From Felixounavirus LF110P1, in sequence record OZ035744.1: DNA of 64,000 nt; one strand, written 5' to 3'. Positions 10,581 to 62,731 of the stretch are shown here, one piece after another. Both the position numbers and the translations under genes were made by a program. The first letter of the stretch is position 1. The number at the start of each line of letters is the position of its first letter. The notes beneath the pieces were generated by a model. It did no database searches and was not told where the DNA came from. It worked only from the letters and a program-made list of their open reading frames with translations.

Positions 10581-10592
10581 TAAATCCTATAA

Positions 10593-29899: not shown

Positions 29900-30463
29900 T
29901 CAAGATAGTTTTGCAAACTCTCCGTGGAGTTTCACAGCAGCTTCACAGTAAGCTTTATGGGCTTCTTCAGGGGTGTCAAACATACCAAGATGATAGTTTT
30001 TACCTTGTAAACGAATCATTGCTCTAAATCTTACACCTATCTTCTGCACACCTTTTGGCAACCCAGATAGGGACTTTCTTGACCGATTGCAAGAGTTTTG
30101 TGAAGCTGTACAAACCCTTAAATTCAAGTACCTATTGTCCCAACCATCACCATTCTTATGGTCAACCTGTAAGGTTTTATCAGGCAGGTATCCATCCACA
30201 TATAGTATTGCTAGACGGTTAGCTTGGTAGCCTTTACCATCAAGCAATAACTGAACAGACTTGTGACCGTCTGTGTTTATCCTATAATTTCCTGCCTTTT
30301 TACCTCCAAAACGAGAGTTGAAGTTCTTATTGCCTCGTGATACCGGCTCTCTAAACTTCCAAGTAAAGACCCCTGTTTCGGGGTCGTAGTCCAATAGCTC
30401 CTTAAGACGAATTTCTGTAATCATTTCAACACCATCAATGTACTTCCAACCAGCTCTTACCAA
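29900..30463 (-). mobile_element. Free-standing HNH homing endonuclease (NUMOD4-like N-terminus, HNH core, AP2-like DNA-binding C-terminus)
   Basis: LKELLDYDPETGVFTWK (NUMOD4-like); QVDHKNGDGWDNRYLNLRVCTASQNSCNR (HNH); GVRFRAMIRLQGKNYHLGMFDTPEEAHKAY (AP2-like); start overlaps the 3' end of the polymerase gene by 29 nt. Confidence 0.7.
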
Positions 30464-34689: not shown

Positions 34690-35433
34690 ATGAGTAATAT
34701 TATCGCATTTACTGGAAAGGCACGCTCTGGAAAAGACACCTCATGTTCTATTGTGAAGAACATCTTAGAGGATGAGTACGGCTACAATGTTGCTGTAATG
34801 GCCTTTGCAGACAACCTTAAAATGTCTGCATCAAAGATATTTGACCTGACTTGGAATGACCTGTATGGTGAAACTAAAGAGACTCCACAGGTATTTGACT
34901 TATCATATCCTGAACTGATGTTTAAAGTTACGGAAGCTATGGAGTTCACCTTCAGAGATGAACGTTACCATATGGACTTCAAGCTTATGTCAGAGTTAAC
35001 CGGACGATTAATCATGGAGCTTAAGAAGGTTGCTAAACCTACCCTATTAACACGTCTGGGATTTAGTAAAAAGTATAAATTCTCATCAAGACAAATTCAA
35101 CAGATTTGGGGTACTGAAGTTGTCCGTAAAGTAATGGGCGACAAGTTCTGGTCTAAAGACCTTGAAAAAAGAATGGTTAGATTCCATGAAATGTGCTCAC
35201 TTAGAAATCAATATGGTTTTGTCTTAATCAGTGATTTAAGATTTGACTCTGAAGCTGAATGGCTGAGTAGATTTGCACACCAAACTATTGAAGTAAAAAG
35301 AGACAATGTGGACAAAGTTTCATCACATGTTTCAGAAAATGGGATTTCTACAAAATATGAGCGTGACATTATTCATAATAATGGTACTCTTGCAGACCTT
35401 GAGAACAAGCTAAGAGCCATCATTAAAGTTTAA
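34690..35433 (+). CDS. Deoxynucleoside monophosphate kinase-like protein
   Basis: N-terminal IIAFTGKARSGKDT P-loop resembling the T4 gp1 dNMP kinase start (GVKRSGKDT); 247 aa. Confidence 0.65.
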   Translation: MSNIIAFTGKARSGKDTSCSIVKNILEDEYGYNVAVMAFADNLKMSASKIFDLTWNDLYGETKETPQVFDLSYPELMFKVTEAMEFTFRDERYHMDFKLMSELTGRLIMELKKVAKPTLLTRLGFSKKYKFSSRQIQQIWGTEVVRKVMGDKFWSKDLEKRMVRFHEMCSLRNQYGFVLISDLRFDSEAEWLSRFAHQTIEVKRDNVDKVSSHVSENGISTKYERDIIHNNGTLADLENKLRAIIKV

Positions 35434-39013: not shown

Positions 39014-40054
39014 ATGGAGAAGTACACATTAACAAAACTTCCCGATTCAGTTACACATGTTTTTATTGACTCTGACAGTATTGCCTATAAAGGTGCTTGT
39101 GTAGTTGAGAAATCAAAATATAAATACGTCAATAAACTCACAGCAGAAGAATCTGAGCCATTTGATAATGCGAAAGATGCTGCAAGATGGTTAGCAGACC
39201 AGAGAATCCTTGTGGAAGAACTTGGCCTGACATTTGATGAAGATGAATGGGAAAGACAGACTTGGAAAGAAGCTAAGAGTGAAAAAGAAGCTATCATGGC
39301 TACTCAACAGGTGCTTCAGGAATGGCTTAAGATTGTTGGTAAAGAAAGAACTTGGGTAGGCTATTTAACAGAGAAAGGTGTGCATAAACATAAAGACATT
39401 AAAGGTCTTGAGCACCAATATCAAGGTAACCGTAAAGATGCTGTCACACCAACACACTTAGTTGCTTGTCGTGAATACCTTTTATCCAGACCAGAGTTCA
39501 AGCTCTTAAAGGGGGGCTTCGAAGCCGATTCAATCGTAATTGCTAAAGCTGAAAAGATGGGTAAGAAGGCTGCTCTTATGAGTATTGATAAAGACCTTCG
39601 ACAAGCTGAAGGAACTTATTGTATTGATATGACTTATGAAAAATCACCACTAATCTTTATTGCTGATAATAATGTTGGTGATATCTGGGATTGTCCTATC
39701 AAATCAAAACCAAAAGCTGCAAAAACAGTTGGTGTAGGTTTTAAGTTCTTATGCTATCAGGCTGTTGCTGGAGATAATGCAGACAACTACTTCGGACTTA
39801 AAGGTGCTGGTAAAGTAGCTGTGATGAATGCTTTAGATGGTAAAGAGACCTACAAAGAGTGTCTTGATGCTATCTATGAACTCTATGCTAAAAAAGACTC
39901 TTATACCTATGTGTCATGGGATGGACAGACTGTTACAAAGACACCGTTAGAGTTAATGGAACAGCATTTCTGGATAGCATATCAAGAGAGAAATCCAAAA
40001 GACAATTTCTCTTTCAAGAAATATAATTGGGAGCCGTGTATGAATGAAGATTAA
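39014..40054 (+). CDS. 5'-3' exonuclease/flap endonuclease (RNase H-like)
   Basis: HVFIDSDSIAYKGA, GFEADSIVIAKAE, MSIDKDLRQ and GDNADNYFGLKGAGKVAV align by eye with conserved T4 RNase H/FEN blocks. Confidence 0.6.
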   Translation: MEKYTLTKLPDSVTHVFIDSDSIAYKGACVVEKSKYKYVNKLTAEESEPFDNAKDAARWLADQRILVEELGLTFDEDEWERQTWKEAKSEKEAIMATQQVLQEWLKIVGKERTWVGYLTEKGVHKHKDIKGLEHQYQGNRKDAVTPTHLVACREYLLSRPEFKLLKGGFEADSIVIAKAEKMGKKAALMSIDKDLRQAEGTYCIDMTYEKSPLIFIADNNVGDIWDCPIKSKPKAAKTVGVGFKFLCYQAVAGDNADNYFGLKGAGKVAVMNALDGKETYKECLDAIYELYAKKDSYTYVSWDGQTVTKTPLELMEQHFWIAYQERNPKDNFSFKKYNWEPCMNED

Positions 40055-40541
40055 AGGATTTGGCAATTGCCCTACCTACGGTCATTGGGTATCTTTATGT
40101 GGGGAAGTTGACCCCACTAAACATTTTGGCTTTGTCTATTTAGTACACTGTAAGAAGACTGGACAATATTATATAGGAAAGAAACAGCTTAACAGTGTGA
40201 CCAAAAGAAAAGTTGCTGGGAAGACTCGGAAGAAGGTAGTCACTAAGGAAAGTGATTGGATGACTTACGAAACCTCTTCTGAGTATATTAAAAAAGATAT
40301 TGAGAGCTTTGGAAAAGAATTTTTTGACTTTTACATTATTCAGACCTACTACACAAAAGGTGGCCTAGTCTATGGTGAAGCAAACCTTCAACATAAATTC
40401 GATGTAATGACAAAAAGGATTGACTCGAAGCTCAGACTCTTCTACAATGCCAATATTGCAGCAATTAAGTTTATTACTAAAGAAACTTATGAAGATGCTG
40501 AAAAAAGAATCCATAAGGTAATGAAAGCAAATTGTGCTTGA
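40044..40541 (+). CDS. GIY-YIG-like nuclease domain protein (putative)
   Basis: FGFVYLVHCKKTGQYYIGKK matches a GIY-(x10)-YIG spacing; 165 aa. Confidence 0.35.
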   Translation: MKIKGFGNCPTYGHWVSLCGEVDPTKHFGFVYLVHCKKTGQYYIGKKQLNSVTKRKVAGKTRKKVVTKESDWMTYETSSEYIKKDIESFGKEFFDFYIIQTYYTKGGLVYGEANLQHKFDVMTKRIDSKLRLFYNANIAAIKFITKETYEDAEKRIHKVMKANCA

Positions 40542-46329: not shown

Positions 46330-48474
46330 ATGAACAAAGTACAGATTATTAAAAAGAATGGCTCACTTGAAGAACCTGATATCAAAAAAGTTTTAGCAGC
46401 AGTCACAAAGTCAGCTAACAGAGTTGGTTATAAAGAGCTTCCACCAGATGTTACTCAAGCTCTTGAGTCAGCATTTATGAGGATTCTGGTAAAGTCCACT
46501 AAGCAGAATAATTTGCTAATTTCGGTAAATGATATTCACAGTATTGTTGAGGGTGCTTTGGCAGAAGTCAATCACGAGATTTATGAGTCTTACTCAACAT
46601 ATAGAAATTACCGTAAAGAGGTTGCTCAAAATTGGGATGAACTCTACCAGAAGACTAAAGATACACTCTTCTTAGGTGACCGAGAAAACGCTAATTTTGA
46701 CAGCAGTTTAATTTCTACAAAAGGTTCAATTATTCGTGGTTATCTGACTAAAGAAATCTTTAAACAGTACCATTTAACACCAGAGGAACTTGAAGCCATT
46801 GAAAAAGGGTTTATCTACATCCATGATTTAAGAGACCTAATTTTTGGTGGTATCAACTGTTGCCTGTTTGACATTGGTAAAGTCCTGAAAGGTGGCTTTG
46901 AAATGTCTGGCATCGAATATTGTGAACCGAAGTCTGTACTGTCAGCCTTACAGGTTATTGGTGATGTAGTTCTTTCAGCAACTGCACAGCAATTTGGTGG
47001 CTTTACTTTAGCAGAGATTGATAAGGTACTTGTACCGTATGCTAAGAAGTCTCTACACTATCATGCTGAGAAAGCAGCATCTTATGGTATTCCTAAAGAA
47101 CATTACCACAATTATGTCATGGAGCAGCTACAGATTGAACTGACTCAGGGTTTCCAGTCACTTGAAATGAAACTAAACACTGTACCTTGTAGTCGTGGGG
47201 ATTTTGCATTCACAACTTTGACATTCGGGTTACTTGACTCAGATATGTCCAATGAAGATAACCGACTGCAATACATGATTGCAAGTACTCTCCTAGATGT
47301 TCGTATGAATGGACAAGGTAAGAGCAAGAAGCCTGTTGTATTCCCTAAACTGGTTTATATTTATGACCAGAAGAGACACGATGAGAATATCTGTCAAGGC
47401 CACCTGTACAGTAAAGCTATTGAGTGTTGCTCTAAAGCAATGTATCCAGACTTCTTAAGTGTATCTGGTCATGGTGCTGTAGCAGAGGCTTTTGAGCGTT
47501 CTGGTAAGGTTATTTCACCAATGGGTTGCAGAGCTTTCTTGTCTCCATATCTTAATGAGGATGGGGAAGAGTTCTACGTTGGTCGTGCTAACATTGGTGC
47601 TGTATCTTTGAACTTACCAATGATTTACCAGTATTCTAAAGAGAATGGATTAGACTTCTGGACAGAACTTGATAAATATCTCGAAATGATTCGTAGCTTC
47701 CATAAGAAACGCTACGAAATGATTGCTAATATGCCAGCAAGTTCTAACCCTCTTGCATTCACACAAGGTGGTCTGTACAAAGGAACTAAGAAACCTACTG
47801 ACAAGGTTGGTTGGGATATTGTGAAGTCCTTCACAGCTTCTTTTGGTGTTACTGCGCTTGATGAGTTGTCTGTTCTTGCTGAAGGTAAACGACTTCATGA
47901 AGTTGGAAGCTATAGTTTTGCATATGATGTTCTGGCATACATCAACATGAAAACCGAAGAGTTTAAAAATGAAGATGGCTTCTTATATGCCGTCTATGGT
48001 ACTCCAGCAGAATCACTATGTGGGACTCAGCTAAAACAGTTCAGAGATATGTTTGGGGTTATCAAAGGTGTTTCCGATAAGGAATACTTTACAAACAGTT
48101 TCCATATGAATGTTGCAGCAGACATCTCGCCATTTGAGAAGCAGGACTTAGAAGAGCCATTCTTCCATATCTGTAGAGGCGGTAGAATCCAGTATGTAAG
48201 AGTAGCTAACCCAGAAAACTTAACAGCACTTAAAAGTTGTATTACAAGAGGGATGTTGAAAGGTTTCTATCAGGGGCTTAACTTTGACTTAGCAATCTGT
48301 GAACATTGTGGTAACAGACCAAAGGCTGATGTTGAAGAATGTGAGGTTTGCCATTCACATGATATCTCTGTGATTAACAGGGTGTGTGGGTATCTTGGAT
48401 GGACTAAGATTAAAGGTGAATCCCGAATGAACGATGCAAAAATCGCTGAGATTCGTGATAGAGTCTCTATGTAA
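46330..48474 (+). CDS. nrdD: Anaerobic ribonucleoside-triphosphate reductase (class III)
   Basis: C-terminal zinc ribbon CEHCG...CEVCHS and glycyl-radical motif NRVCGYLGW; N-terminal ATP-cone-like region. Confidence 0.85.
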   Translation: MNKVQIIKKNGSLEEPDIKKVLAAVTKSANRVGYKELPPDVTQALESAFMRILVKSTKQNNLLISVNDIHSIVEGALAEVNHEIYESYSTYRNYRKEVAQNWDELYQKTKDTLFLGDRENANFDSSLISTKGSIIRGYLTKEIFKQYHLTPEELEAIEKGFIYIHDLRDLIFGGINCCLFDIGKVLKGGFEMSGIEYCEPKSVLSALQVIGDVVLSATAQQFGGFTLAEIDKVLVPYAKKSLHYHAEKAASYGIPKEHYHNYVMEQLQIELTQGFQSLEMKLNTVPCSRGDFAFTTLTFGLLDSDMSNEDNRLQYMIASTLLDVRMNGQGKSKKPVVFPKLVYIYDQKRHDENICQGHLYSKAIECCSKAMYPDFLSVSGHGAVAEAFERSGKVISPMGCRAFLSPYLNEDGEEFYVGRANIGAVSLNLPMIYQYSKENGLDFWTELDKYLEMIRSFHKKRYEMIANMPASSNPLAFTQGGLYKGTKKPTDKVGWDIVKSFTASFGVTALDELSVLAEGKRLHEVGSYSFAYDVLAYINMKTEEFKNEDGFLYAVYGTPAESLCGTQLKQFRDMFGVIKGVSDKEYFTNSFHMNVAADISPFEKQDLEEPFFHICRGGRIQYVRVANPENLTALKSCITRGMLKGFYQGLNFDLAICEHCGNRPKADVEECEVCHSHDISVINRVCGYLGWTKIKGESRMNDAKIAEIRDRVSM

Positions 48475-48483
48475 AACTTGACA

Positions 48484-48525
48484 AGGTGATGTGGGTCTTG
48501 ATAGGCTTACATCACCTTTTTTTTT
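48484..48525 (+). terminator. Strong rho-independent terminator after nrdD
   Basis: AGGTGATGT ... ACATCACCT followed by a run of nine T. Confidence 0.7.
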
Positions 48526-48631
48526 ATTGGATGTTAGATATGGCAGAGAGTATTATTGGGTTGTTCATAGGTTCTGTCTTACTAGGGTTCTTTTTAGGAC
48601 TCTCTTATTGTGAATTGAAAGGTAAGTTAAA

Positions 48632-48832
48632 ATGCTTAAGATATCAAAAGCGTTGATATACATACTCCATATTCTAGTCTTCTTCTTTGGGGTTAGTGTT
48701 ATGGTATGGGGTTTTTCAGACCCACAATGGAGTTTATCATATCATGGTCAGATGGATTTATGGTCATGCTTCAAACCATTTTTAGGGTTAGCTATAGCAT
48801 TCAGTGCATTACCAACTAAGGTGAAATTATGA
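48632..48832 (+). CDS. Small membrane protein
   Basis: 66 aa with hydrophobic segments ALIYILHILVFFFGVSVMVWGF and PFLGLAIAFSAL. Confidence 0.3.
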   Translation: MLKISKALIYILHILVFFFGVSVMVWGFSDPQWSLSYHGQMDLWSCFKPFLGLAIAFSALPTKVKL

Positions 48833-49224
48833 TTAAGTTGAGTCAAAAACAGTTAGAGTGGATTAAAGACTATGCCTCAGAGTGTGGCTCTTGTGAAAAG
48901 AATCACGTAAGATATTCAACATTCCACACGGTCTTCACATTGTATATCGGCGACAATGTTCTAAGTGATTCTGTAGAAGATGGTGTAGCATTGCCTAATG
49001 AATTGCTTGACAAATTAGCTGTAGTCACTGGAACTTGGTCTGAAGAAGACGGTCATGAACTATCTAACGATATTGTCTTCTACAGTCTTGAAAACATCAT
49101 GAATCCAGAGTACATTATGCTAATGACTTGCGCACAAGATTGTGTACCATTACAAAACTTCATTAAAGAGCACTGTGAAGAATTTATTACTAAACAGGTT
49201 CCTTGTCAGGTGGTGTTTGAATGA
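48829..49224 (+). CDS. Hypothetical protein
   Basis: 131 aa, Cys pair CGSCEK. Confidence 0.3.
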   Translation: MIKLSQKQLEWIKDYASECGSCEKNHVRYSTFHTVFTLYIGDNVLSDSVEDGVALPNELLDKLAVVTGTWSEEDGHELSNDIVFYSLENIMNPEYIMLMTCAQDCVPLQNFIKEHCEEFITKQVPCQVVFE

Positions 49225-49520
49225 GTAAAACAATTCGAAGAAAAGGTTTAAAGAACGTTCATGGATTTTATGAGTGGAGAAATGAGGTACGTAACAGAGA
49301 AAATGCTTCAGAGGTCTACTACCACTCTGATATGATGTCCAGAAAAGGTGGCTTTTACGACTTCACAAGTCAGCCTTGTAGAGAGATTAAGAAGGCTACT
49401 AAACGTCTTACAAGAACACAAATAAGGCAGCTTTCTAAGACATCCTTCTTAGATGAAGACTTTGACATTGATAGTAAGTCTCCAAAGAAAGCTGCTAAGA
49501 ACACTTATATGTATTGGTGA
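49221..49520 (+). CDS. Hypothetical basic protein
   Basis: 99 aa. Confidence 0.3.
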   Translation: MSKTIRRKGLKNVHGFYEWRNEVRNRENASEVYYHSDMMSRKGGFYDFTSQPCREIKKATKRLTRTQIRQLSKTSFLDEDFDIDSKSPKKAAKNTYMYW

Positions 49521-50581: not shown

Positions 50582-50902
50582 ATGAGCAAAGTTTATAACA
50601 CTCGCAAATTACAGATTTTCGTACTGTGCCAGTTTATGGCTAAAGAGTATAACTTCTACTATTGCGGCACAGGTTTTATTAGTGATGATGATGGCTCATA
50701 CCTCCCATTCAAAGAAGCTGTAAAGCTCTTTAATGAAGAGAAAAGCTCTAAGAAAGATATTGAAAAGGTTAAGCTAACCTACAGCAAGAAAGATAAGAAG
50801 ATTATCTGCCTAGATAACTTTGTAAAAGTTACTGGAGAAGCAAAAGAGTTTATGGATGAGAGTGAGATTTCATTCACAAGCATCTTGAAAGTAGCTCAGT
50901 AA
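50582..50902 (+). CDS. Hypothetical protein
   Basis: 106 aa, followed by a terminator. Confidence 0.3.
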   Translation: MSKVYNTRKLQIFVLCQFMAKEYNFYYCGTGFISDDDGSYLPFKEAVKLFNEEKSSKKDIEKVKLTYSKKDKKIICLDNFVKVTGEAKEFMDESEISFTSILKVAQ

Positions 50903-50914
50903 ACAGATACTATA

Positions 50915-50939
50915 AGGGAACTGTAAAGGTTCCCTTTTT
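50915..50939 (+). terminator. Rho-independent terminator
   Basis: AGGGAAC tgtaaag GTTCCCT followed by TTTTT. Confidence 0.6.
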
Positions 50940-50953
50940 ATTTTGGAGATGAT

Positions 50954-51469
50954 ATGTATCTGTCAAACCTAAAACGTTCTGCTGCAATGTCAGTGCTAAG
51001 ACTCAGCTTTGAGGAACGTCAAGAGTTCATTGACTCCCACCAATACGACCCCTCAAACTCCAATCACATGATTCTCTGGAATCGTGAAAGTACTCGTGAA
51101 AGAGCACTATTCCGTTATTACCCACACTACACTATAGATAACCTGTATGAATTGTTTGTTGTGAAGAACACCATTACAGTGCTCAATAAACTTTGCAGAT
51201 ACACAGGCAGTCAATCCTTCACATTAGGCCATCACAAACCTGTTACAAAGGGTGGTGAGCATCACTGTGCAAACTGGTTTATTCAGACTAAACTTGATAA
51301 CCAGAAGCAAGGGGATAACCTTCTAAGCACCCCTAAGATGACCTACGAAGAGCAAGAGAAATATATCAAAAATAATATGCCAGATGTGCTTGACAACCAC
51401 TATACAGATTTGGCAATATCTCTCCTGTTGAAGTTCGAGACAGTTTATAGGGCAACTTACAATGGCTAA
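50954..51469 (+). CDS. HNH-like nuclease motif protein (putative)
   Basis: LGHHKPVTKGGEHHCANWFIQTKLDNQKQGDN resembles an HNH core (HH...N...N). Confidence 0.3.
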   Translation: MYLSNLKRSAAMSVLRLSFEERQEFIDSHQYDPSNSNHMILWNRESTRERALFRYYPHYTIDNLYELFVVKNTITVLNKLCRYTGSQSFTLGHHKPVTKGGEHHCANWFIQTKLDNQKQGDNLLSTPKMTYEEQEKYIKNNMPDVLDNHYTDLAISLLLKFETVYRATYNG

Positions 51470-51740
51470 AGAAAAGTGGGAGATTTTACCATTAGTCAGT
51501 GAAGGTGGTAATGGTTGTGAGATGTACATGATACGTGGTCATGTTCCAGAACCAATTGCGCTTGAGATGGTAAACAACTTTACAGATGGTTCTTACAAAG
51601 ACTTAGGAGAGCCAACTATAAAGCATCAATGGGTAAAGCCTGTACCAGACAGCACAGGTAACTGTAGTGTACTTTACCACGTTGTAGACCCTGTAAAATG
51701 CAAATCTGCAATGGCAGTAACAAACGTAACCTTTGATTGA
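51462..51740 (+). CDS. Hypothetical protein
   Basis: 92 aa. Confidence 0.3.
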   Translation: MAKEKWEILPLVSEGGNGCEMYMIRGHVPEPIALEMVNNFTDGSYKDLGEPTIKHQWVKPVPDSTGNCSVLYHVVDPVKCKSAMAVTNVTFD

Positions 51741-51755
51741 GATAGAGAGAAAACT

Positions 51756-52637
51756 ATGAAAACTGTTATTGAAGCCGTCATCACCGCACAAGAGAAATTC
51801 TTCCACACAGAAAAATTTAACATCATCCAATTCCCATCTGGAGAAATTGGTGGAAACTTCTCTGAAGATTTTGTTAAGTTTGCTGAGCGTAATGCTGGTA
51901 AGATTGATAATGTTATATTTACTGTACAGGGGTATGACAAAGATACACTGTTTGCATTAGCTTTGGCTAAGGATGCCGTTGACAGTCTTGTTCCCCAGAA
52001 ATCAGCGATGAAAACCGTTGTTTTCGGGTTCTTACCAAATGCTCGATATGACCGCCACATGTTCAAAGGTGATGCAGCAGCACTGAAAGTCTTTGCCAAC
52101 CTCGTTAATGCAATGGGTTTTGATGCAGTATGTGCTCTTGACCCTCACAGTAATGTTGCAGAAAACTTATTTAAGTGTTTTCAGAGCATGAAGCAAAAAG
52201 ATGTGGCAGTACACTTTGCAAGTGACCCACGCATTGATTTCTTAGTAGCCCCAGATGCAGGTGCAGCTAAGAAGACTGAAGATGCCGCTAAAGAGGTGGA
52301 TAAACCATATATCACAATGTCTAAAGTGCGTAACCTTAAGACTGGTGAAATTACTGGTATGCGAATCCTTGATGATGTTGATTTGACAGATAAAACCGTC
52401 ATGATTCTGGATGATATTTGTGATGGTGGGCGAACCTTCATAGAGGCAGCTAAACATCTTCGTGAAGCAGGTGCAAAACGTGTGGAACTCTATGTAACTC
52501 ATGGTATTTTCTCTAAAGGTGTTGAAAACTTACTTGACAATGGTATTGACCATATCTACACTACAAACTCTTTGGGTGAAGCTAAAGACCGTGGCTTAAC
52601 ACATTACGCCCAAGTTACTGTAGTAACTATTGATTGA
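51756..52637 (+). CDS. Ribose-phosphate pyrophosphokinase (Prs) family protein; could be canonical PRPP synthetase or an ADP-ribose pyrophosphokinase (Adps-like)
   Basis: PRPP-binding signature VMILDDICDGGRTF, plus FGFLPNARYDRH and LDPHS blocks aligning with Prs FGYARQDRR and DLHA. Confidence 0.8.
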   Translation: MKTVIEAVITAQEKFFHTEKFNIIQFPSGEIGGNFSEDFVKFAERNAGKIDNVIFTVQGYDKDTLFALALAKDAVDSLVPQKSAMKTVVFGFLPNARYDRHMFKGDAAALKVFANLVNAMGFDAVCALDPHSNVAENLFKCFQSMKQKDVAVHFASDPRIDFLVAPDAGAAKKTEDAAKEVDKPYITMSKVRNLKTGEITGMRILDDVDLTDKTVMILDDICDGGRTFIEAAKHLREAGAKRVELYVTHGIFSKGVENLLDNGIDHIYTTNSLGEAKDRGLTHYAQVTVVTID

Positions 52638-52646
52638 AACTTTATA

Positions 52647-52667
52647 GGGGCTTGAAAGCCCCATTTT
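52647..52667 (+). terminator. Hairpin between the Prs-like and NAMPT-like genes (weak terminator or attenuator)
   Basis: GGGGCTT gaa AAGCCCC followed by ATTTT. Confidence 0.35.
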
Positions 52668-52682
52668 GAGAGAGATTAAAAG

Positions 52683-54464
52683 ATGACTAAATCACTTTAT
52701 GCCGTACCAGCAGGTTTAAACGCAGATGCTTACAAATCTGGTCATGTTTACCAGTATCCTAGTGCAACAGAGTACTTGATGTTCAACCTGACACCACGTA
52801 GTGACAAATGGTTTAACAGCCCTTTGGCAATTGACGGTGTAGTGGCTTTTGGTATTCAACGTTTCGTTAAAGATTACTTGATAGACCATTGGAACGCCAC
52901 TTTCTTTGAACGTGACAAAAAAGAAGCAATTGACGAAATCTTAGAAGTCATGAACGGTGTTCTGGGCAAAGATGCTATTGGTCGAGAGCATTGGGAAGCA
53001 CTTCACGACTTAGGTTATCTGCCAGTCGAAGTATACGCTGTAGAAGAAGGCACAGTTGTTCCGATGCGTGTCCCAATGATTGTATTCCAGAACACTGTTT
53101 CAGGTTTCCATTGGGTAGCGGGGTATCTGGAAGATGCTTTCTCTGCTGAGATTTGGAAGGCTTGTACCATTGCAACTATTGCATTGCACTACAAACGTAT
53201 CTGTAAGAAGTGGGCTGACCTCACTTGTGACAACGACTTCCATTTACCTTATCAGTGCCATGACTTTGCTATGCGTGGTATGTCCGGCTTTACTGATGAC
53301 GCATTTAACGCTGTAGGTCACTTAACCAGCTTTAAAGGAACTGATAGCTTCCCTGCTGTATACACTGCTAAACGAATCTATGGTCAGTCTTACCCAATCT
53401 CTGATATTGGTAGTTCTGTACCAGCCACTGAACACTCTGTAATGTGTGCAAACATTGCTTGGGAAGGTGGTAATGAATTGATTGAAGATGAAAGACGCTT
53501 TAAAGGTGAGTTACAAACCTTCCGTCGTTTTTTAACAGAAACTTACCCAACTGGTATTGCAAGTGTTGTTTCAGATACTTATAATTTCTGGAGAACTGTA
53601 TCAGTCATATTACCAGAACTCCGTAAAGAGATTATGGAACGCAATGGCAAACTGGTAATTCGTCCTGATTCTGGAGACCCTGTGCATATTGTCACAGGAT
53701 ACAAAGCAATCCATTTAGAGTGTGCTAAAAAGGCTTATTACGAACACTTAAGCAAGCTTGAAGCCAGCGACACAATGTTGAATGCTGTTCTGAACATGAA
53801 GCTTGAAAACATCAATTATGGTATTGCTGGATGGCTACTGTCAGAAGGCTACGAAATGGTTGTTGACAGAGAAGACTTTGAAGTTGCTGATACAGTACTG
53901 CTGAAGAATGCTTATATGGTTGGTTCTGCAAACGTTGTAACACGTCCTGTAGCAGAGATTGATGGAGCTATTAAGACCCTGTATAACATCTTCGGAGGGA
54001 CTATCAACTCTAAAGGATTCAAGGTACTGGATGAGCATATCGGCCTTATCTATGGTGACTCTATCACGCTGGAACGTGCAAACGAAATCCTGAAGCGCCT
54101 TTATGAAATGGGTTTTGCAAGCTCTAACGTGGTGTTTGGTGTAGGCTCTTACACTTACCAGTACATGACTCGTGACACATTTGCATTTGCTGTCAAAGCA
54201 ACTCTTGCAAGCATTGGTGGTAAAGAGATTATGCTTGCAAAAGACCCTAAAACAGATAGCGGTGTTAAGAAATCTGCCTTTGGTGGTGTAGCGCCTATGT
54301 GGGACGGTGATAAACTGAAAGCTGTAGATGGCTACGGATTCCAGAGTTTTGCAGATGTACTTGACCACCAAGCTTGTGCTTTACGTTTAGTCTTTAGTGA
54401 CTCTGAGCAGTTTGGTTACACAACTCTTGGTGATATTCGAAATAATATTGACAAGCAGCTTTAA
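52683..54464 (+). CDS. Nicotinamide phosphoribosyltransferase (NAMPT/NadV) family protein; possibly Namat-like
   Basis: N-terminal NADAYKSGHVYQYP matches the NAMPT DSYKVTHYKQYP block; 593 aa, longer than I would expect for a typical NAMPT. Confidence 0.75.
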   Translation: MTKSLYAVPAGLNADAYKSGHVYQYPSATEYLMFNLTPRSDKWFNSPLAIDGVVAFGIQRFVKDYLIDHWNATFFERDKKEAIDEILEVMNGVLGKDAIGREHWEALHDLGYLPVEVYAVEEGTVVPMRVPMIVFQNTVSGFHWVAGYLEDAFSAEIWKACTIATIALHYKRICKKWADLTCDNDFHLPYQCHDFAMRGMSGFTDDAFNAVGHLTSFKGTDSFPAVYTAKRIYGQSYPISDIGSSVPATEHSVMCANIAWEGGNELIEDERRFKGELQTFRRFLTETYPTGIASVVSDTYNFWRTVSVILPELRKEIMERNGKLVIRPDSGDPVHIVTGYKAIHLECAKKAYYEHLSKLEASDTMLNAVLNMKLENINYGIAGWLLSEGYEMVVDREDFEVADTVLLKNAYMVGSANVVTRPVAEIDGAIKTLYNIFGGTINSKGFKVLDEHIGLIYGDSITLERANEILKRLYEMGFASSNVVFGVGSYTYQYMTRDTFAFAVKATLASIGGKEIMLAKDPKTDSGVKKSAFGGVAPMWDGDKLKAVDGYGFQSFADVLDHQACALRLVFSDSEQFGYTTLGDIRNNIDKQL

Positions 54465-54477
54465 AAGTATATGATAA

Positions 54478-54499
54478 GAGGCTCCCGTAGGAGCCTCTT
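54478..54499 (+). terminator. Terminator-like hairpin
   Basis: AGAGGCTCC cgta GGAGCCTCT followed by TTAATTT. Confidence 0.4.
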
Positions 54500-54517
54500 T
54501 AATTTCTGGAGAAAACT

Positions 54518-61945: not shown

Positions 61946-62731
61946 ATGGGTATTGTAAAAATCATCAATGGTGATATCTTTGCTGCATTTGATAAAGGTA
62001 AGTTTGACATCATTGGTCATGGTTGTAACTGCATGAACCTAATGGGCGCAGGTATCGCTGACAAGATTTCTAAACTTTACCCAAAAGCATATGAGACCGA
62101 TACAGAAGTTTATCTCTATGCAGGTGGTATAGGTCACAAACCCTGTGAGAATTTACTAGGTAATTTCTCTGTAGCACGCTTAAAACAAGGTCGTATAGCT
62201 AACCTTTACACTCAGCTTAAGACTGGTAAAGATGCCCGATACAGTGCTTTAGAGTCATCTTTGAAACAGCTTAACAGATACTGTGAAGTTAATCAGTTGA
62301 AGAAAGTTGGTTTACCTATGATTGGTGCAGGTATCGGTGGACTTGACCCTCAAGCCATCACAGTTATCATCAATCAGGTGATGAAGAGTGTAGATGTTTA
62401 TCTGTATGTCTATGAAGGCGAGATGTACCACAAGTTACGCTCAGGTTGGAAGAACTACTGTGAACCAGAATACTTTGCAGGTGTAGCAGTGTTCACAGAT
62501 AACGCAGTTACCCTCTTCAGACGAAGAAAAGGTAAGATACATCAAAGTAACCCTCCGGTTGAAAAGATGTCTCTAAGTAACGCTCTAGTTACCCACCTGT
62601 CAAAGAGCAATCACAGAATTGCTGTAACATTTGGTAGTGATGCAGAAGCTTATATCTATGCAAGAACTGATGAGGATATCGAGGCAATCTTCTCTTCACC
62701 AGAAGTTACCTTCTTAGACGCAAAGAACTAA
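61946..62731 (+). CDS. Macro domain (ADP-ribose binding/processing) protein with a C-terminal extension
   Basis: INGDIF...DIIGHGCNCMNLMGAGIADKI and KVGLPMIGAGIGGL resemble the two macro-domain binding loops (VNAAN...GGGV and PAISTGIYG). Confidence 0.6.
   Translation: MGIVKIINGDIFAAFDKGKFDIIGHGCNCMNLMGAGIADKISKLYPKAYETDTEVYLYAGGIGHKPCENLLGNFSVARLKQGRIANLYTQLKTGKDARYSALESSLKQLNRYCEVNQLKKVGLPMIGAGIGGLDPQAITVIINQVMKSVDVYLYVYEGEMYHKLRSGWKNYCEPEYFAGVAVFTDNAVTLFRRRKGKIHQSNPPVEKMSLSNALVTHLSKSNHRIAVTFGSDAEAYIYARTDEDIEAIFSSPEVTFLDAKN

Follow-up and report, generated by a model that had tools for sequence, protein, structure and literature searches.

Two adjacent genes of Felixounavirus LF110P1 as a very probable NARP1 pathway of NAD+ reconstitution

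We analyzed a stretch of 64,000 nucleotides from Felixounavirus LF110P1 (sequence record OZ035744.1; hereafter the window), which represents the first 64 kb of the ~86 kb genome of a FelixO1-like myovirus. Two adjacent genes on its plus strand very probably constitute NARP1, an anti-defense pathway which rebuilds NAD+ by means of Adps, a homolog of phosphoribosyl pyrophosphate (PRPP) synthetase (Prs), and Namat, a homolog of nicotinamide phosphoribosyltransferase (Nampt). This reading is favored because both genes are nearly identical to those of the founding NARP1 operon, because the residues that discriminate Adps and Namat from their housekeeping relatives are present, and because no gene for a nicotinamide mononucleotide (NMN) adenylyltransferase (NMNAT) was found; the function of the two proteins is inferred from this identity. 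The finding is already known in the sense that the founding operon comes from another isolate of the same genus. A literature search returned no paper linking Felixounavirus with NARP1, nor Bas63, the phage of the founding operon, with a macrodomain.

The first gene, Adps (51756-52637, plus strand), encodes 293 amino acids (aa) and the second, Namat (52683-54464, plus strand), encodes 593 aa. Both start with ATG in the six-frame list of open reading frames (ORFs), and they are separated by a spacer of 45 nt (52638-52682). A preliminary description of this DNA had placed a Prs-family gene with the motif DDICDGGRT 45 nt before a 593-aa NAMPT-family gene on the same strand, with which the ORFs and the profile matches agree. 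Its suggestion that the pair corresponds to NARP1 was upheld by the identity of the proteins to the products of Bas63 genes 79 and 80 (bas63_0079, 284/293 residues, 97%; bas63_0080, 581/593 residues, 98%; both alignments gap-free) and by the discriminating signatures described below.

According to the proposed mechanism, NAD+-depleting defenses with SIR2-, TIR- or SEFIR-type effectors cut NAD+ into ADP-ribose (ADPR) and nicotinamide. Adps would pyrophosphorylate ADPR at its 1'' position, taking the beta,gamma-pyrophosphate from ATP and yielding ADPR-PP and AMP, and Namat would then convert ADPR-PP and nicotinamide directly into NAD+ and pyrophosphate (PPi), with no NMN intermediate and no NMNAT required. 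The substrates of the pathway would be the very products of the defense effectors, such that the depletion itself would be undone. Since substrate would appear only once a defense has cut NAD+, the pathway should otherwise cost the phage little. The enzymology of ADPR-PP and NAD+ has been shown for homologs from Bacillus phage SPbetaL1 and Vibrio phage ICP1 (for ICP1, PMC13586617) and in vivo for Bas63 (bioRxiv 10.1101/2024.02.11.579819), and the same two-enzyme chemistry would be expected for the window pair. Cancellation by NARP1 has been demonstrated for type I Thoeris, DSR1, DSR2, SIR2-HerA and SEFIR, and also for Kongming and SPARSA (PMC12774641).

NARP1 was discovered by deletion of genes 79-80 of Bas63, or Escherichia phage JohannRWettstein (Osterman et al., bioRxiv 10.1101/2024.02.11.579819). 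As reported in that study, the Δ79-80 mutant formed ~20-fold fewer plaques on SIR2-HerA cells, NAD+ was partly restored by wild-type Bas63, the effect was also seen when the host lacked pncC and nadR (ΔpncC ΔnadR), and ADPR-PP (m/z 720.010) was observed only when both phage genes and the defense system were present. Because Bas63 Adps did not purify well, SPbetaL1 homologs were used in vitro, with which both NARP1 reactions were shown; SPbetaL1 Adps gave no product in a Prs assay (bioRxiv 10.1101/2024.02.11.579819).

The window phage and Bas63 belong to the same genus, and in Bas63 the two genes also lie between nrdG and rIIA. Gene order, the 45-nt spacer, a hairpin within this spacer and the lengths of the proteins (293 and 593 aa) are all the same, and every catalytic and selectivity residue of Adps and Namat is identical. 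The proteins differ by 9 (Adps) and 12 (Namat) conservative substitutions, none of which (0/21) falls on a position with an assigned role in catalysis or selectivity. The codon differences are mostly synonymous (synonymous to non-synonymous, 31:9 for Adps and 91:12 for Namat), indicating that both genes are under purifying selection.

According to published counts, 859 of 20,185 phage genomes carry NARP1. In the collection that we searched, Adps homologs were detected in 1,550 records and Namat/Nampt homologs in 2,028, nearly all of which are labeled as Prs and Nampt. The relevance of the present finding lies mainly in annotation: the labels "ribose-phosphate pyrophosphokinase" and "nicotinamide phosphoribosyltransferase", which imply the wrong chemistry, are still attached to approximately 250 records of Felixounavirus and to well over a thousand phage records altogether. 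Felixounaviruses infect E. coli, Salmonella and Shigella and are frequently put forward as agents for therapy and biocontrol of E. coli and Salmonella; carriage of NARP1 predicts their plating on hosts with SIR2-, TIR- or SEFIR-type NAD+-depleting defenses.

Discriminating features of Adps and Namat

At the family level, the first protein resembles Prs: it matches Pfam Pribosyltran (E-value 4e-12) and Pribosyl_synth (2e-09), PHROG 619 "ribose-phosphate pyrophosphokinase" (2.5e-99) and TIGR01251 (1.7e-39). The last of these, a broad subfamily model, is the only Prs model whose cut-off was passed (135.5 vs 113 bits). Against the Prs equivalog and subfamily models of NCBIfam, the best scores were 56-111 bits, while the cut-offs are 296-536 bits; every equivalog model failed, among them NF002320 (100 bits, cut-off 297). 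Pairwise comparison gave 37% identity (119 bits) to the biochemically characterized ICP1 Adps, versus 28% (64 bits) to E. coli Prs. The best match in the PDB was an archaeal Prs (1e-17), and there was no Adps chain among the PDB chains searched; residues were mapped from the ICP1 paper in place of a structure-level comparison.

In ICP1 Adps, the catalytic lysine K185 is located on a beta-hairpin, the acceptor residues are R87, H121, D161, D212 and D213, and the PP loop is conserved (PMC13586617). Our alignment places R87, H121, D161 and K185 at R97, H131, D167 and K190 of the window protein, and D212, D213, I214, C215, D216 and F221 at D219, D220, I221, C222, D223 and F228. Both the catalytic lysine and the PP-loop segment DDICDG (residues 219-224, within DDICDGGRT at 219-227) are therefore kept. 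The two proteins differ in that the PP loop contains GGRT in place of GAAS, and their identity is only 37%. Absence of the Prs C-terminal alpha11-alpha12 module has been described as an Adps feature (PMC13586617). In the sequence alignment, this segment of 20 residues has no counterpart in the window protein (293 aa, compared with 315 aa of E. coli Prs), which together with the equivalog scores sets the latter apart from Prs. The loss of this regulatory and filament-forming module and the rewired donor site suggest a protein that fits ADPR rather than ribose 5-phosphate (R5P).

Among Felixounaviruses, the N-terminal part of Adps (approximately residues 1-180, window 51756-52300) forms a sharply delimited mosaic region. 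When the relative fjerdesal is compared with the window, residues 1-180 show 60-80% nucleotide and 53-75% protein identity, whereas identity is 100% over residues 181-240 and ~95% in the flanking DNA. In a tblastn search with Adps, 160 records showed 60-80% identity and 46 showed at least 95%; most members of the genus thus appear to carry a divergent N-terminal allele. Recombination and diversifying pressure are possible causes.

The second protein matches Pfam NAPRTase (1.8e-34) and NAMPT_N, PHROG 448 "nicotinamide phosphoribosyl transferase" (5e-202) and NF006629 (1.8e-140). Two features have been reported to distinguish Namat. The first is a conserved helix motif, GSxΦ1xΦ2xΦ3TRD, whose aromatic residues stack on the adenine of ADPR-PP (PMC12774641). 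A single regular-expression match to this signature, GSYTYQYMTRD, was found at residues 488-498. At this position, genuine Nampt enzymes carry GGxLLQ, as in the Nampt of Xanthomonas (Xcc; GGALLQKVDRD) and of the T4-like phage GAP161 (GGGLLQEVTRD). The second feature is a variable selectivity-clamp loop, which supplies either a third-position Arg or a Lys or Tyr that a stacking residue follows; Bas63 represents the Lys type (PMC12774641). The clamp loop of the window Namat, PRSDKWFNSPLA, has K42 followed by W43, the same as Bas63 Namat.

The catalytic core of Namat is defined by the catalytic His and the equivalents of Arg306, Asp215 and Phe189. This Nampt-like core is kept in the window protein, including the catalytic H251 as well as R327, D221, F195, R198 and D329; A248 and G458-D459-S460 could also be mapped. 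For these assignments the chain of structure 9w5x was rebuilt from the alignment output, and its numbering reproduces every residue cited for SPbetaL1 Namat (PMC12774641). The conserved NAD+-contact residues of SPbetaL1 Namat are, in window numbering, D15, Y17, F195, R198, D221, A248, R327, D329, G458, D459, G488, S489, Y494, T496, R497 and D498. Differences from SPbetaL1 Namat include the clamp loop (K42-W43 in place of R40) and the equivalents of F392Y and S190A. The window protein scores 430 bits with the SPbetaL1 Namat structures 9w5w/9w5x, versus 178 bits with Xanthomonas Nampt and ~145 bits with human NAMPT.

Compared with SPbetaL1 Namat and the Nampt enzymes, the window Namat has an insertion of ~77-86 aa at residues ~340-426 (window 53700-53960) and a second one of ~15 aa after residue 258 (~258-275). 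Namat homologs of other large phages have insertions of variable length at the ~340-426 site, which is not discussed in the structural papers on Namat and Adps (PMC12774641, PMC13586617). In ICP1 isolate 2017_Dha_AD, the annotated Namat lacks part of the N-terminus (439 aa) and is matched by tblastn in two pieces; its motif reads GSYTYQYVTCD, with Cys for the conserved Arg, and this Namat may be a variant or in the course of decay.

Rival readings of the pair

The better of two rival explanations is classical salvage of the NadV or NARP2-like type, in which the first enzyme would make PRPP from R5P, the second would make NMN from PRPP and nicotinamide, and an NMNAT of the host or from elsewhere in the phage genome would complete NAD+. 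The generic profile annotation of both proteins says just that, and Namat homologs retain measurable PRPP-dependent NMN synthesis in vitro (PMC12774641). The folds are also those of NARP2 (Nampt and Nmnat, Vibrio phage KVP40) and of bacterial Prs/NadV, that is, PRPP synthetase-like and type II phosphoribosyltransferase (Nampt-like).

However, no NMNAT partner was found for the window pair, in which an Adps is present instead. Using E. coli NadD and NadR as queries, neither tblastn nor phmmer detected a homolog in the window or anywhere in the Bas63 genome (best E-value ~0.8), although such searches could miss very divergent NMNATs. A Pfam scan of 40 ORFs (30 of the window and the ten largest unannotated Bas63 ORFs beyond it) gave no match to CTP_transf_like, NUDIX or an NMN transporter; for PnuC, this result comes from the general ORF scans, and no dedicated query was made. 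The deposited annotation of Bas63 likewise lists no NMNAT, NadR or Nudix gene. These searches agree with the earlier observation, confirmed here by Pfam, tblastn and phmmer, that no NMNAT is seen in the window, and the search for NMNAT/Nudix genes in the remainder of the genome, carried out on complete Bas63, found nothing either. The absence of a NadR homolog from the window and Bas63 (tblastn, phmmer) also separates the pair from NARP3 (NadR and PnuC).

Other evidence points in the same direction. The second protein carries the aromatic motif of Namat instead of the Nampt-type GGxLLQ motif of NARP2 and NadV, and the first falls far below the NF002320 cut-off of 297 bits and fails the other equivalog models. 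In addition, the Bas63 orthologs act without pncC and nadR, and SPbetaL1 Adps is inactive in a Prs assay (bioRxiv 10.1101/2024.02.11.579819). The lack of any detected NMNAT, NadR or Nudix gene, together with the Bas63 effect in the ΔpncC ΔnadR host, excludes the NadV-type alternative of the preliminary description for practical purposes, and we regard classical salvage as very unlikely.

Even less probable is a nucleotide-supply module without a role in immunity, in which a Prs-like enzyme would raise PRPP for phage nucleotide synthesis beside the ribonucleotide reductases: nrdA, nrdB, nrdD and nrdG do lie a short distance upstream of the pair, and genes for thymidylate synthase, dihydrofolate reductase (DHFR) and deoxynucleotide monophosphate (dNMP) kinase are in its vicinity, but the Bas63 deletion phenotype is specific to the host with an NAD+-depleting defense (bioRxiv 10.1101/2024.02.11.579819), and both the lost Prs module and the rewired donor site suit ADPR rather than R5P.

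Several points weigh against the NARP1 reading. For this exact phage, it rests on sequence comparison with orthologs, and the in vitro activity comes from homologs that are 37-50% identical, as Bas63 Adps did not purify. Namat keeps about half of the PRPP-to-NMN activity of human Nampt in vitro (PMC12774641), and some NMN may conceivably be produced by Namat. Two adenine-contact positions of ICP1 Adps are changed in the window protein (F92 to M102 and F223 to E230), and the F18/F16 equivalence is not kept in the other Adps allele of Felixounaviruses. Finally, the last ~22 kb of this phage genome were checked for NMNAT only via Bas63.

A Macro-domain gene distant from the pair

Some NARP1 operons are extended by Adpp, an ADPR-1''-phosphate phosphatase; the resulting pathway, NARP1-AP, overcomes the defense aRES (bioRxiv 10.64898/2026.01.28.702374). 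The window contains a gene for a Macro-domain protein of 261 aa (61946-62731, plus strand), an ortholog of bas63_0095 ("putative phosphatase") and a member of phrog_335. Its Macro domain comprises residues 1-155 (Pfam, 30.5 bits, cut-off 22), and it is the only Macro-domain ORF found among the window ORFs scanned. The remaining C-terminal extension of ~105 aa is present in Felixounavirus-like phages only and belongs to no known family.

Comparison with Vibrio phage Gary, whose NARP1-AP consists of Adps, Adpp and Namat, revealed that the window Macro domain is homologous to Gary Adpp (27% identity, E-value 2e-13). The window protein and six NARP1-associated Adpp proteins have all 13 of 13 invariant columns in common, including the catalytic H25 (H24 in Gary). 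The profile of PDB matches is the same for Gary Adpp and the window protein, and a joint profile reaches yeast Poa1p (1e-12). In contrast to NARP1-AP, the window gene lies outside the operon, 7.5 kb and ~14 genes downstream of the pair. The published criterion for NARP1-AP calls for a Macro gene at most two genes from the pair, and none of the four ORFs flanking the window pair matched Macro.

A tentative hypothesis, which we consider possible but rather unlikely, is that Felixounaviruses such as this phage and Bas63 run a dispersed three-enzyme pathway, in which the Macro protein feeds ADPR to the Adps-Namat pair. In such a pathway it would dephosphorylate the ADPR-1''-phosphate that is released by RES-type (aRES) NAD+ phosphorylases to ADPR. 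The distance of ~14 genes argues against a functional link, as does the frequent occurrence of the same Macro family among T-even phages, which are not known to have NARP1. On the other hand, the published NARP1-AP survey covered Macro genes within two genes of NARP1 only, and its table contains no Escherichia or Salmonella phage; a dispersed arrangement would therefore have been missed. If true, the dispersed pathway would provide resistance to a defense that defeats plain NARP1. A functional Macro gene would extend the host-range prediction to aRES and would mean that searches based on operon proximity undercount extended NARP1 pathways.

Transcription unit and genomic setting

Two small plus-strand ORFs precede Adps. 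The first (171 aa, 50954-51469; phrog_3500) has a weak HNH-like match and lies between an upstream hairpin and Adps, and the second (92 aa, 51462-51740; phrog_4726) is present in Felixounavirus-like phages only and stops 15 nt before Adps; both have unassigned functions. Consensus scans identified a terminator-like hairpin upstream of them (50914-50936, plus strand; 9-bp stem, T-rich tail, RNAfold -14.6 kcal/mol), which probably ends the preceding transcription unit. On the other side, 12 nt past the Namat stop, is a terminator-like hairpin (54476-54499, plus strand) with a 10-bp GC-rich stem (6 GC pairs) and a T-rich tail. Terminators on both sides of the pair had been noted in the preliminary description; the downstream one stands as described, but the nearest upstream hairpin is located ~820 nt 5' of Adps, with the two small ORFs in between. 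Given these two ORFs and only 15 nt without any hairpin between the 92-aa ORF and Adps, a transcription unit of four genes, from the 171-aa ORF through Namat, is likely, and the 171-aa ORF is probably cotranscribed with Adps.

None of the four small ORFs flanking the pair contains a Macro, RyR or other informative domain. The 171-aa ORF keeps its position relative to NARP1 across the Ounavirinae, Erwinia Kolesnikvirus among them. A functional link of the flanking ORFs to the pair was considered and dropped: in phi92 the homolog of the 171-aa ORF is ~76 kb away from Namat, and the 92-aa ORF does not occur outside the genus.

Directly before each of the two hairpins flanking the NARP1 unit is a sigma-70-like promoter match, the two elements forming a compact promoter-plus-hairpin cassette at each unit boundary. 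The upstream match (50885-50913, plus strand) is TTGAAA-17-TACTAT, and the downstream one (54448-54475, plus strand) is a strong match, TTGACA-16-TATGAT (11/12), whose expected start site is partly overlapped by the hairpin at 54476-54499. Judging from its position, the latter would drive the next unit, which comprises a 111-aa ORF, a 58-aa ORF, rIIA and rIIB. Similar hairpins occur in the window at 10591, 23583, 34646, 38969, 42180, 48483 and 58609.

The Adps-Namat spacer itself contains a hairpin (52647-52662, plus strand) with a GGGGCT/AGCCCC stem and a TGAA loop, followed by ATTTTG. For the 51-nt fragment from stop to start codon that includes it, RNAfold gave -11.5 to -12.6 kcal/mol. The stem is kept in Bas63 and fjerdesal, with an altered loop in fjerdesal, and this putative element is possibly a weak terminator or an RNA-stability element. 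In relatives, additional DNA is inserted at two sites, the spacer (52638-52682) and the position just 3' of Namat (54465-54517). An ORF for an HNH homing endonuclease is located inside the spacer of Salmonella phage S.Kent 1-2-1. Bas63 and fjerdesal differ from the window in having an extra 114-aa ORF (bas63_0081, phrog_20372, unassigned function) after the Namat terminator.

Megablast searches with the pair region and with both 25-kb ends of the window retrieved many Felixounavirus records with 95-97% nucleotide identity, and position 1 of the window coincides with position 1 of several records. The GC contents of the first (0.405) and second (0.421) genes are like that of the remainder of the window (0.392). 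An Rfam scan of the whole window gave zero matches at gathering score and a tRNA search of the window found none; judging from Bas63, the tRNA cluster and many small ORFs probably fall in the part of the genome beyond the window.

The window also contains endonuclease ORFs of the GIY-YIG (40044-40541) and HNH (29900-30463) types. Its nrdD gene is uncut (46330-48474, plus strand, 714 aa), while that of Bas63 (46630-49516) is annotated as a join of two pieces with another gene between them, which suggests an insertion polymorphism of a mobile intron or homing endonuclease. The dNMP kinase gene (34690-35433, plus strand) was recognized by Pfam DNMK (76 bits). The NAD+-depleting defense Kongming is reportedly triggered by phage dNMP kinases, and this phage may carry both the trigger of Kongming and, in NARP1, its antidote.

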